Assembly (NCBI GenBank): GCA_963762115.1
Contig: CAVXJH010000005.1
Location: forward strand, 32,001 to 96,000
Source of the DNA: Candidatus Babeliales bacterium
GTDB taxonomy: Bacteria; Babelota; Babeliae; Babelales; JANWKD01
Direction of reading: 5' to 3'
DNA: 64,000 bases
In this document: positions 4,879 through 54,319 of the stretch, piece after piece
How positions within the stretch are numbered: position 1 is the stretch's first letter
How the letters are laid out: every line of letters starts with the position of its first letter
The notes under the pieces: generated by a model
What the model was told of the DNA's origin: nothing
Database searches by the model: none
Seen by the model: the letters and a program-made list of their open reading frames with translations, nothing else
Made by a program: the position numbers and the translations under genes

Positions 4879-5249
4879 AAGCCAATTCACTAAATAAATA
4901 CATAAACTTAATCTCATTCTTAGATGGCCTCATGTCGGCCAGACATGAATATATTGCATGCCCAATATATTCAATACAAGGGCACCAACGTTCCGTTGGA
5001 TCTTTTTTCCCGCGCGAATATGCACCACTCCATTGTTGATGCCTTCAGCATCAAAATTCCAGGTGCACGTCGCACTACCAGACTAACTTATTTATAAATT
5101 TTTCTTACTTCAAGACGATAATCAGAACAACATTCAAAAAAAAATGTCATTCCTAACCTACGAACTTCGAAGAATCAAAAATAGCAGAGGCCTGTCCGCC
5201 ATAGTGATTGTGTTAAAAGTCAAATATTTTTTAATAAAGCTAAACAATA

Positions 5250-6191
5250 TTAAGCTTTACATAATTCACCTTTTTTTAGTAAAGAATTAGCAATCACAAT
5301 AAGTTTATGCATAATAGCTACGATAGCTATTTTAAAAGGTTTTTTAGAAGTTATTAAACGATCGTAAAGTTCCTTTAATGGGAGATGATATTTAATAGTT
5401 GTTAATGCACACATATAAAGCATATTTCTTGGAATAGTTCTTCCACCTCTGATGAATTTTTTACCCTTATAACTTCCACTTTCATTCTCATAAGGACAAA
5501 CACCAATGAGTGCTGATACTTTTTTATTACTTATTTGACCAAGTTCAGGAACGAATGATAATAATGTTGCAGCTGAAGTTTTGCCTATTCCTGGAATTGA
5601 CTCCAAAATTTTTGATTTTGTATTTAATTTTTCATCTTGCTGAATTAAATCTTGTATCTTTAAATCAATTGATTTGATTTCGCACTCTAAGATTTTGATA
5701 AATTTCTTTATACTTGATGCATATAATGCATGAGATGGATGTTTAGATCTTGTTTTTTCGGCAACTAAAAATTTTACCAAGTCATTTTTACGATTGACCA
5801 AAGCTTGTAATTTTTCTTGATTTTCGCTTTTGTTCATTATCTCATAATCAGGAGAATTTTTAGAAGCAAATTCAGCAATTTTTCGAGCATCAATTTTATC
5901 CGTTTTGCTTTTGCAGCCACTAGCAACAATATAGCCTTTTATTCTTCTTGGATCGATGATCCAAAGATAATAACAATTTTTTTTTAATATTCGAGCAAGT
6001 AATTTTTCATACCCACCAGTTGCTTCGCATGCAATTTGTTCGATATCATATTTAACTAATTCTTTAATGATCTCCGTTATTCCAACTTCTGAGTTTGATA
6101 CTTTTAAAGATTTTCCTATTGGATGGATATAAACATCTAAAGTGTTTTTTGAAATATCGACACCTATAAATACTTTTGATATATTTTTCAT
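5250..6191 (-). CDS. IS110-family DEDD recombinase/transposase
   Basis: GVDISK, CEATG, KTDKID (DEDD), SIPGIG and catalytic-serine loop NESGS. Confidence 0.97.
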   Translation of the reverse strand: MKNISKVFIGVDISKNTLDVYIHPIGKSLKVSNSEVGITEIIKELVKYDIEQIACEATGGYEKLLARILKKNCYYLWIIDPRRIKGYIVASGCKSKTDKIDARKIAEFASKNSPDYEIMNKSENQEKLQALVNRKNDLVKFLVAEKTRSKHPSHALYASSIKKFIKILECEIKSIDLKIQDLIQQDEKLNTKSKILESIPGIGKTSAATLLSFVPELGQISNKKVSALIGVCPYENESGSYKGKKFIRGGRTIPRNMLYMCALTTIKYHLPLKELYDRLITSKKPFKIAIVAIMHKLIVIANSLLKKGELCKA

Positions 6192-6400
6192 AAATACCTC
6201 TGGCTTGTAGACATGCGAGATCGTATGTACTTGATACGTCTCTAGTGATTGTTCGAGGTCATTTTTGTATAAGCTGATAGTCTCAAACTATGACACGGTC
6301 CTTTGAGACCAAGCTTGACACGAGATCTATCAGCTTCTCAAACAATTAATTTCAAAACAACTGATCATAAATTAACAAAATTTAGCTTTAAAATCATTTT
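6192..6400 (-). ncRNA. IS110 bridge RNA (target-binding loop ~6271-6336, donor-binding loop ~6197-6260); ends approximate
   Basis: 10-bp stem AAGCTGATAG/CTATCAGCTT encloses guides matching the flanks; second loop carries ACAATCACT and TACAAG matching the donor junction. Confidence 0.88.
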
Positions 6401-6558
6401 GATTTAACATACAAGCTTGCCAAGCCTGAAGGCGTGGATAAGCGAAGGGAAATGCTTGGCCTGCATAAGGCCGTTTTATAACAAACAAAATATCTTGTTG
6501 AAAAATACAAAATATATAATAATAAAAAATAAATAGTATTTATAACAAGTGAGAATCT

Positions 6559-6903
6559 ATGCAAATTGTTAAAGAAAAAATTACCCTTGAAGAACTAAAA
6601 AAAATGTCAGAGGAAATGTTTGGCAATTTGGTTAAAGCTGTTGTTGATATTGAACAAAAAATTATGGTTGTTGATGCTGACATGCATGCTGATGAAGAAG
6701 AGCTTTTATTAGAATTGGGATCAGAACAAAAAAACCTTTGGGGAATCAACATTCATCCTGATGAAGTTGATACTGAAAACTGGATAGAATTTGACTCAAT
6801 GATCAACATTCGTCCACGCTGTGACAACAAAAGCCGCTATGTACACAATCCAAAAATTAGAGAACAAATAATAAAAATTGTTAATCAATTGGTTAAAAAA
6901 TGA
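6559..6903 (+). CDS. DUF5674-family protein
   Basis: VKAVVDIE...MHADEE.LLL..GS.Q.NLWGINI...IEFDSMINIRP. Confidence 0.8.
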   Translation: MQIVKEKITLEELKKMSEEMFGNLVKAVVDIEQKIMVVDADMHADEEELLLELGSEQKNLWGINIHPDEVDTENWIEFDSMINIRPRCDNKSRYVHNPKIREQIIKIVNQLVKK

Positions 6904-7238
6904 AAATTCATCATACATCACTTACCATTGAACGCTGGTCAAGATTTTCACTCCTTGAACAATTAGCTAATGTTGGTAGTGATGTTGAACGCACAATCCA
7001 ATGGAAAAAAAGAGGCAATTTAGAATATAGTCAAAATGCATTTGAACGCGTATTAGAACTTTTAGACTTTACCATTGAAGACCCAAAAAATAAAAAAAGG
7101 CTCAGAGAAATCTTGCGTGTTCGCGAAGCATTGATAGATTATTTTATGTATAGCAATGAATATTCTTCCACCGACAAATCTTGGCAAGACTATTTTTATC
7201 AATTTAATTATGCTGCAGCAATGCAAAAAGGAAAATAA
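6900..7238 (+). CDS. conserved all-helical protein coupled to DUF5674
   Basis: ATGA overlap with upstream gene; RW..FSLLEQLANVGSDVER motif. Confidence 0.75.
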   Translation: MKIHHTSLTIERWSRFSLLEQLANVGSDVERTIQWKKRGNLEYSQNAFERVLELLDFTIEDPKNKKRLREILRVREALIDYFMYSNEYSSTDKSWQDYFYQFNYAAAMQKGK

Positions 7239-53010: not shown

Positions 53011-53140
53011 AAAACTCTCTCCTTGCCTAAATATATAAGTGCTTAAAAGATATAATTTGCTTAATGAAAAGTCTAGTTCGCATAACTTAAAATGAGATGT
53101 ATAATTTTTTGCAAGACTTAGAAGAGAGGAATGTCATTGC

Positions 53141-54319
53141 TGTATGTGTTCAGAGTTTCGGTGAATAATTTTTTACACAAAGTGGCAATCAAAGTTGAAT
53201 TGTAAGTTTTTTAATTCCTTAAACGGGTATGCCGGTTTCTTTCAACAATTCGGATGGTACTTTGCCATTCAAACCTTGATGCGGCCGATGTTCATTGTGA
53301 TAGAAATTATATCCAAGAACAGCATCTTTTAATTCATCGATTGTGTTAAAGATGGATCCTTCAATAACTTCATCATCAAAAGAACGCCAAAATCTTTCAA
53401 TTTTTCCATTTGTTTGTGGTCTATAAGGCAAAGTTCTTCGATGTTTAATCGCAAAATGAAGTAGCAATCGTTCAAAAGGATGATTTTTTAATTTTTCTGG
53501 CGTTGAACAAAACTCAGCACCATTATCTGTCAGAGCTTCATCAAAGGTGATATTATATCGTTGGTTCATATGTAAAATAATATCCATCATAGCAAAGGCA
53601 ACATCAATTGCCTTTAAAGATTCAATTACTTCGACCCAAACTATTCTCGAAAAATCATCAATTACACCCAATACAAAATATTTCTTTTTAGGTTCAGATT
53701 GTACAATTCCCTTAGGTAGGTAATGGCAATCTATATGAGCTAATGATCCTGCAAATGTTCTCACAATCTTTCTTTTTTCCTCTTGCACTAATTTAGTTAA
53801 TTTAGAAACACCATATTTTCGTAAAGTTCGATACACTGAACTTGCAGAAAAACCCTTTTTAATCAAAGGATTTTTTTTGAGGGCCGCAGCGATAACATAC
53901 CTATTTAAACCTGATTTTCGGTATTCCAAAATTTTTTTTACAAGGCTATCATCTGCAAGTGGAAGTTCCTCAAATTTAGGTTTAGGACCACGCCTTATAG
54001 GCAGTAGAAGTTCGGGAATTCCCTGGGCCGCTTTATAGCGCCCATAAAGTTTATAAAAATTCTGGAAACAGAGCTCCCTGGCTTCAAAAAATTCTCGAAC
54101 AAACCTAAATTGTGGATGCTTTTTTGCCTTAACAAGCTCATATTCTTCTACATATTTTAGCATGTACTTTATTGAATTACTAACCAAAGTAGGATACGAT
54201 GTATTTATACTCACAAAAGAACTCCTGTGTTAAAATTGTTAATATTTGCGTATTCTAATTCTAACTCTGATTTACTTTTGTGGGTATTTTTTTATTCACC
54301 GAAATTATGAACTTTTACA
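53141..54319 (-). mobile_element. IS481-family insertion sequence
   Basis: TGT...ACA ends; 28-bp terminal inverted repeats with 23/28 identity (53141-53168, 54292-54319). Confidence 0.9.
53219..54214 (-). CDS. IS481-family DDE transposase
   Basis: HIDC, VIDDFSR, LTDNGAEF, PYRPQTNGKIERF, HNEHRPHQGL. Confidence 0.95.
   Translation of the reverse strand: MSINTSYPTLVSNSIKYMLKYVEEYELVKAKKHPQFRFVREFFEARELCFQNFYKLYGRYKAAQGIPELLLPIRRGPKPKFEELPLADDSLVKKILEYRKSGLNRYVIAAALKKNPLIKKGFSASSVYRTLRKYGVSKLTKLVQEEKRKIVRTFAGSLAHIDCHYLPKGIVQSEPKKKYFVLGVIDDFSRIVWVEVIESLKAIDVAFAMMDIILHMNQRYNITFDEALTDNGAEFCSTPEKLKNHPFERLLLHFAIKHRRTLPYRPQTNGKIERFWRSFDDEVIEGSIFNTIDELKDAVLGYNFYHNEHRPHQGLNGKVPSELLKETGIPV

Follow-up and report, generated by a model that had tools for sequence, protein, structure and literature searches.

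An IS110-group element and its recombinase

The minus strand of the window, by which we mean the whole 64,000-nt stretch of DNA analysed here, carries an IS110-group element whose recombinase gene lies between a long non-coding left end, containing a predicted bridge RNA, and a short right end (Table 1). Divergent from the element, at positions 6559-7238, are a DUF5674 gene and an overlapping 112-aa ORF without a Pfam or NCBIfam match. The genome (1.53 Mb, 7 contigs) contains five full copies of the element, each measuring 1,211 bp core to core, which differ by 0 or 1 nt, with I25V in the protein of one copy and C261Y in that of another. Such near-identity suggests that the element has spread recently.

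Table 1. Coordinates of the element, its predicted RNA and associated sites in the window
Feature	Position	Strand	Basis or remark
IS110-group element of 1,209 bp, bounded by two CT cores	5205..6413	-	same ends in five copies
313-aa IS110 recombinase: DEDD RuvC-like domain, coiled coil, Tnp domain	5250..6191	-	ORF, profiles, predicted structure
Left non-coding end, 222 nt, with predicted bridge RNA	6192..6413	-	RNA start probably near 6400, judged from the junction promoter
Right non-coding end, 45 nt, with -35-like hexamer at 5218-5223	5205..5249	-	hexamer recurs in relatives' right ends
-10-like hexamer	6406..6411	-	17 nt past the right-end -35 solely in joined (circular) ends, computed join
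6-bp subterminal inverted repeat flanking donor	6403..6408, partner 5212-5217	-	sequence
Left target with left CT core (6414-6415)	6414..6422	-	sequence and copy comparison
Right CT core (5203-5204) and right target	5198..5204	-	sequence and copy comparison
REP-like repeat left arm, serves as target; resumes at 5202-5190 past the element	6414..6452	-	13 genomic copies; DNA folds
Target-binding loop: outer stem 6327-6336/6271-6280, bulged A 6326, inner stem 6322-6325/6281-6284, hairpin 6297-6310	6271..6336	-	fold and alignment
Left target guide, 6 nt + core	6312..6319	-	7/8 to left target; covariation at target positions 3-7, absent at 1-2
Right target guide, 5 nt + core (7 nt: 6 Watson-Crick, 1 G-U)	6288..6294	-	covariation; separates occupied from empty repeats
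Target-loop handshake; U6287 is the predicted partner of donor position 7 (A) once strands are exchanged	6286..6287	-	covariation; concept from the accessible part of PMC11208158
Donor-binding loop: outer stem 6255-6259/6196-6200, inner hairpin 6217-6242	6196..6259	-	alignment consensus
Left donor guide	6244..6252	-	9/9 to 5203-5211; donor positions 6, 7 track guide
Right donor guide, 6 contiguous nt; discontiguous pairs of the IS621 type possible at 6213-6214	6204..6209	-	complementary to left end
Donor-loop handshake; C6203 is the predicted partner of target position 7 (G) once strands are exchanged	6202..6203	-	covariation; G at position 7 in five of five genomic sites
Uninterrupted IS481-like transposase gene = empty allele of fifth site, core 53591-53592	53219..54214	-	allele comparison

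The recombinase matches PF01548 and then PF02371, both above the gathering score, its length fits the 300-460-aa range of IS110 proteins, and it scores 190 bits against NF033542 (cut-off 140). In a sequence search of the PDB the sole matches were IS621 and ISCro4, and the predicted structure (mean pLDDT 87) superposes on their structures with TM-scores of 0.79-0.83 at 28-31% identity. Residues D12, E56, D98, D101 and S238 align to IS621 D11, E60, D102, D105 and S241, whose catalytic roles are defined in the accessible part of PMC11208158, and the wedge positions are occupied by Y259, M260 and L263. The DEDD residues and the serine are unchanged in 64/64 aligned proteins (the query and 63 of the 120 homologues listed), all of which also have an Asp at residue 80 (D80) where IS621 has N84, a residue that contacts and reads the core according to the same part of PMC11208158. 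The profile score, the PDB matches, the structural likeness and the unchanged catalytic residues bear out an earlier, sequence-only reading of this DNA, which had taken the protein for an intact IS621-type IS110 recombinase.

That reading had further assigned the element to a poorly sampled lineage, which holds for the literature searched, where coverage is thin, and fails for sequence data, where the family is not rare: 952 homologous proteins were retrieved at E<=1e-40, and of 261 genomes examined from the phylum, 32 contain a match. With the one protein as query, GTDB contigs gave 1 locus. The few homologues with an organism name, both of the recombinase and of the DeaD helicase in the window, are from Dependentiae or Babeliaceae, which makes a host of this phylum likely. 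Our searches found no paper linking IS110 with Dependentiae; the names are absent from 7 supplementary files of PMC11208160, where unnamed members of the clade remain possible, and the names Dependentiae and Babelota are absent from the accessible main text of the IS622 preprint. A 42%-identical relative (L014, L041, L042; G013) has an apparent TT core at the donor and at some targets.

The two ends hold the halves of a candidate promoter. In a computed join of the ends, the -35-like and -10-like hexamers are separated by a 17-nt spacer and agree with 9 of 12 consensus bases, giving a motif match to a predicted sigma-70-like promoter; the same arrangement, at the motif level, is described across the joined ends of IS621 in the accessible text of PMC11208160. 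A consensus scan of the linear locus returned 9 promoter-like sites with 8.1 expected, that is, no signal above chance. No joint of right end to left end, as in a circle, was seen in the low-depth contigs of four DNA runs at the locus and three at the fifth copy, contigs that give partial cover and drop rare forms. No RNA run is listed among the sequencing runs that contain this sequence. Run X3 contains a sister element, about 96% identical, in which both target guides differ, at window positions 6291 (right guide) and 6319; at its right flank, mismatch counts rule out both flanks of this genome while leaving the base itself unfixed. Locus L005 has a tandem duplication at the beginning of its left end, with two left junctions 19 nt apart.

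Predicted bridge RNA and covariation of its guides

The segment 6192-6400, proposed as a bridge RNA by the sequence-only reading, folds at -53.7 kcal/mol (z -3.21) and is more stable than 200/200 shuffles. Its single-sequence fold contains the target-loop stem and both inner hairpins, along with a predicted A/U-rich 5' hairpin that precedes the target loop and lies outside the alignment test; the outer stem of the donor loop is unclosed in this fold and shows in the alignment consensus instead. The 10-bp stem (6327-6336/6271-6280) and all four guide matches are located on the minus strand where they had been placed, among them the donor guides, with their 9/9 identity to the right end and complementarity to the left end. 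Other landmarks are G6321 (an invariant linker G), linkers at 6320 and 6295-6296, G6254 and G6216; through such landmarks and covariation, rather than through the published covariance model, IS621 numbering was transferred by eye from the accessible part of PMC11208158. Across the window, Rfam has 0 matches at the gathering score, and a search of the genome for an orphan bridge RNA gave 5 matches, each at one of the five copies. When the left end minus its first 14 nt was subjected to 5,000 dinucleotide shuffles, the guide matches, each taken alone, arose in 2.8%, 10.1%, 0.08% and 7.2% of them, and all four jointly in 0.

Relatives of the element provide a view of the stems and guides at clade level. 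There were 71 loci, 60 of them with a strong match; 16 under 50% identity were dropped, 4 of the remaining 44 were unparsed, and the other 40 yielded 33 distinct target loops, this element included. The register was set from the RNA alone, with 3 unassignable loops excluded. The named stems are paired in 97.0% of 984 cells, with two-sided changes in 14 of 30 pairs, a result attained by 0/500 shuffles and set against 29-40% in slid controls; RNAalifold recovers nearly the same helices unaided. An RNA model built from the alignment matches 10 loci among the more distant ones (41-73 bits) and finds no match in L021-L031 or L068-L071.

The guides and the sites change together across these relatives. 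For the left guide, identities at target positions 1-7 number 5, 8, 11, 15, 18, 20 and 23 of 24, where 6.1, 6.1, 6.8, 7.8, 9.2, 9.5 and 14.7 are expected, or 100/168 overall (60.0 expected). For the right guide, positions 10-14 give 25, 25, 27, 19 and 24 of 27, or 120/135 over 27 elements (61.0 expected). In the 21 elements with both flanks, right positions 10-14 agree in 94/105 cases and left positions 3-7 in 76/105 (Wilcoxon p 0.008); across the clade, sites adhere more closely to the right guide than to the left one. The relatives are kin, which makes permutation p-values overstate the signal, although the sites of these elements vary widely. Donor positions 6 and 7 follow the left donor guide in 28/28 elements each, while the right donor guide is nearly invariant in the clade and hence allows no covariation test. 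The two target guides and the left donor guide of the sequence-only reading are upheld by this joint change; that reading had missed the handshake base, one per loop. The first handshake base is complementary to target position 7 in 25/27 elements for the donor loop (15.0 expected) and to donor position 7 in 26/28 for the target loop (19.6 expected); the second handshake bases are not complementary (5/27 in the donor loop, 0/28 in the target loop). Of two unparsed relatives read by hand, one (L034) matches 9/9 on the left side, and the other (L045) combines the left guide of this element with a different right guide and is located at a site spelled by that right guide. The 10-nt segment after the linker G holds the core in two registers, 6+CT+N or 7+CT, depending on the relative, with the loop length constant.

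The relatives also redefine where two of the guides end. The left target guide had been given as 6312-6320, an 8/9 match to 6414-6422; the match is present, but in relatives the identity of 6320 with target position 1 is at chance (5/24, 6.1 expected). This base, which follows the invariant G6321, is a likely U/C linker, and a 9-nt guide is rejected in favour of 6312-6319. The right target guide had been given as 6288-6295 with 8 bp; that pairing too is present, but 6295 sits at a linker position of the IS621 structure, outside the 14-bp target, and the 8-nt version gives way to 6288-6294. Likely linkers are thus what the earlier reading had counted as the first base of the left target guide and as the eighth pair on the right side.

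Insertion sites inside and outside the repeat

The sequence-only reading had staked its case on the flanks of the other copies agreeing with the guides. Four of the five copies are indeed at the predicted target, in distinct variants of one REP-like hairpin repeat with differing outer flanks; the fifth fits the right guide only. A census by the 39-nt left arm found 13 repeat copies in the genome, in which ATG follows the core in 4/4 occupied and 0/9 empty copies (Fisher p 0.0014 for occupancy against ATG); an extra, short-armed copy is also empty and without ATG. The left arm is present in 57/261 genomes of the phylum, with compensatory variants and with 0 control matches tabulated, and the ATG variant makes up 2/36 copies in five related genomes against 4/13 here (p 0.036). 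Two sites outside the repeat match the guides no worse than the occupied sites do, but are empty. Both lie in open frames (707 and 156 codons) and are without an upstream hairpin over the left target, so that selection or structure could explain their emptiness.

The repeat recurs around related elements. Many related IS110 guides appear to target this or similar repeats (G005, G108, G109, G110, G188; L073-L102), and in G241 the same repeat is found empty about 40 nt upstream of an IS110 element with other guides (L035, L036).

The fifth copy (C6:254955) interrupts an IS481-like transposase gene, which scores 163 bits against NF033577, below the cut-off of 224. Three uninterrupted copies of this gene are present in the genome, identical in the junction region and with a single CT. 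These empty alleles fix the ends of the element, show the insertion to be scarless and identify the bases after the right core as target DNA; they rule out that the three bases after that core are part of the element. A contig of run X1 omits exactly 1,211 bp at this site, with 2 letters fitting either side, and may stem from another copy. The right guide pairs here at 5/5 positions (4 Watson-Crick, 1 wobble), as it does at 0.33% of 148,942 CT cores, or at 0.078% when G at position 7 is also asked for. The left guide has 1/6 matches in register; if a one-base bulge is allowed it reaches 3 and a wobble, as do 47% of 38,107 genomic CT sites preceded by G. On these alignments, the best reading of the fifth copy is insertion through the right half only. 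A half-match to a donor arm was also considered and discarded, the site having only 1/7 to the left donor and 2/5 to the right donor.

The IS481-like element itself has four copies (window 53127-54319, C3:197475-198823, C3:347542-348878 and, interrupted by the IS110 element, C6 near 254955). Its copies are adjoined by a second and larger dispersed repeat family of about 190 nt, with dozens of copies that are 70-85% identical, as at C6:253100-254100 and many other places.

At five of five sites the left target lies in the 3' arm of a DNA hairpin, with mean pairing of 0.79-0.87, and a pairing of 0.75 is reached by 3.8% of 1,500 random CT sites; the hairpin was noticed after the fact, and four of the five sites are the same repeat. 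A target hairpin throughout the clade is unsupported, the mean pairing at 37 sites being 0.40 versus 0.31 at random sites and 0.32 with shuffled flanks. Hairpin pairing also shows no relation to the left-guide match (Spearman -0.01, 34 sites).

Proposed mechanism, rival explanations and known systems

The ends, the core, scarless insertion, the correspondence of guides and sites and the recent copies are read directly from the DNA. We put at roughly 93% the probability that this is an intact IS110-group element whose predicted left-end bridge RNA guides the 313-aa recombinase in joining the element ends to a target centred on CT. On the pattern of IS621, low-level transcription would permit excision, and the joining of the ends would then build the -35/17-nt/-10 promoter and boost the output of bridge RNA. 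The donor loop would read the joined ends, and the target loop about six bases to the left and five to the right of the CT core. The serine would attack at the core, with serine-linked strand exchange taking place in a synaptic complex of two dimers and being driven by one handshake base per loop. In the case of IS621, the accessible part of PMC13626964 reports that the joined ends drive expression and that the linear element does so weakly; cut-and-paste and copy-and-paste movement have both been argued in print, in the passages available.

Could the protein recognise the hairpin repeat by itself, the guide matches of the left end being incidental or vestigial? The position of the left target under a hairpin at five of five sites fits such a view. 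We nonetheless regard it as extremely improbable, since guide and site change jointly in relatives with unrelated flanks, nine repeat copies with the same arm and another right half are empty, and the four guide matches never arise jointly in the shuffles. That the four repeat copies spread partly by homologous recombination or branch migration along with flanking bases, such that the sorting of the right variant would reflect co-conversion, strikes us as unlikely, if less far-fetched. The higher share of the ATG variant here than among the 36 empty copies of five relatives leaves some room for it, occupied and empty copies within one repeat sub-family differ at exactly the right-target variant base, and for CazIS110 the accessible part of 10.1101/2025.10.25.684509 describes direct transfer that bypasses a circle. 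Against it, the fifth site, which has no repeat, natively possesses the same three bases according to its empty alleles, and the flanks of the four copies diverge 12 nt from the core on the left and 9 nt from it on the right. Further, the ATG variant exists empty, in 2/9 copies in G005, and the right guide of relatives tracks the occupied variant, in 25/27 at target position 11.

For the fifth copy, an explanation that we take seriously, at somewhat under even odds, is that of an imperfect full-match insertion, with a bulge and wobbles, or of a rare sequence-independent event, the hairpin being incidental. One bulge raises the left side to 3 Watson-Crick pairs and 1 wobble of 6, relatives L044, L063 and L065 fit better with a bulge, and IS621 is reported to tolerate insertions in the target; that the hairpin is incidental accords with target hairpins being no feature of the clade as a whole and with the event being a single one. 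On the other hand, close to half of all comparable sites reach the bulged score, and the two bases beside position 7 are still mismatched with it; the right side is within the best 0.33% of CT cores, and so the insertion was not sequence-independent. A more far-reaching possibility, which we hold to be doubtful, is that the recombinase is anchored by the right guide and that a DNA hairpin over the left target can replace left-guide pairing, an idea drawn from one event, that at the fifth site. If this holds, the fifth copy would be a case of natural right-target-only insertion made possible by the structure of the target, contrary to the stem-loop result for ISPpu10 (below), and a hairpin class of off-targets would be predicted for bridge editors with 7-nt right guides.

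Judged by its sequence, the element is likely a working addition to the known RNA-guided bridge recombinases. As this type of system is already known, the element by itself is not surprising. Its practical value would be that of a compact, apparently recently mobile orthologue, in which recombinase, RNA, donor, target and boundaries are all readable and for which relatives in the clade supply about 30 natural guide reprogrammings. Furthermore, the one genome offers a test panel of four occupied repeats, nine empty ones with another right half and a half-matched site with its empty alleles. The panel bears on two current questions: do right-target-only matches drive natural insertion, and can a hairpin in the target take over from pairing of the left guide?

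All testable features of the IS110 group and of bridge RNAs were found in the element. The IS1111 group, which has its seekRNA or bridge RNA in the right end, shares the recombinase family and subterminal inverted repeats. The present element differs from it in having the RNA in a 222-nt left end, a right end of 45 nt and a 6-bp repeat that is shorter than the 7-17 bp of IS1111; the absence of both the long RNA-bearing right end and the 7-17-bp repeats excludes membership of that group, and the same three traits are those of the IS110 group (IS621-like). With IS621 and ISCro4/IS622, as described in the accessible parts of PMC11208160, PMC11208158, PMC13626964 and 10.1101/2025.05.14.653916, the element has in common the domain order, the DEDD residues and serine and the fold (TM ~0.8). 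The likeness extends to an RNA in a long left end, with two internal loops and bulged-A and linker-G landmarks, to the CT core, the position-7 handshake and REP-type targets, and to the right donor letters, which agree at IS621 positions 8-14. It departs from IS621 and ISCro4 in its protein (about 30% identity) and its likely host (Dependentiae/Babelota). Set against what these sources give for IS621, the left guide is 6 nt plus core here and 9 nt in all there, the native right guide 7 nt here and 4 nt there, and the subterminal repeat 6 bp here and 2-3 bp there; there is only one handshake base per loop, Asp replaces N84, and the letters of the left donor and target differ. Longer native right guides were already noted in the first description of the system.

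ISPpu10 of Pseudomonas putida, compared here by description and not by protein from the accessible part of 10.64898/2026.03.19.712850, shares six left positions that tolerate core-distal mismatches and five strict right positions, and its target is likewise a REP with the left half in a stem-loop. According to that source its stem-loop cannot rescue lost left-guide pairing, whereas the fifth site here combines a hairpin with a chance-level left match. The hairpin is moreover conserved among ISPpu10 homologues, as far as the same text goes, and not across this clade.

Insertion with the core and one arm matched has likewise been described for IS621 in the accessible part of 10.64898/2026.08.31.748434, where a right-target half-site is enough in vitro; donor half-matches are reported in the available text of a survey of expanded elements (10.64898/2026.08.14.744561). 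Reports on other elements already cover tolerance in the left guide, strictness in the right one, hairpins at the target and insertion on a half match. The genomic re-analysis of IS621 excluded right-target-only sites because the right guide of IS621 has 4 nt, as stated in the available text of 10.64898/2026.08.31.748434. In the present genome, by contrast, a native right guide of 7 nt and three empty alleles make one natural right-only event readable.
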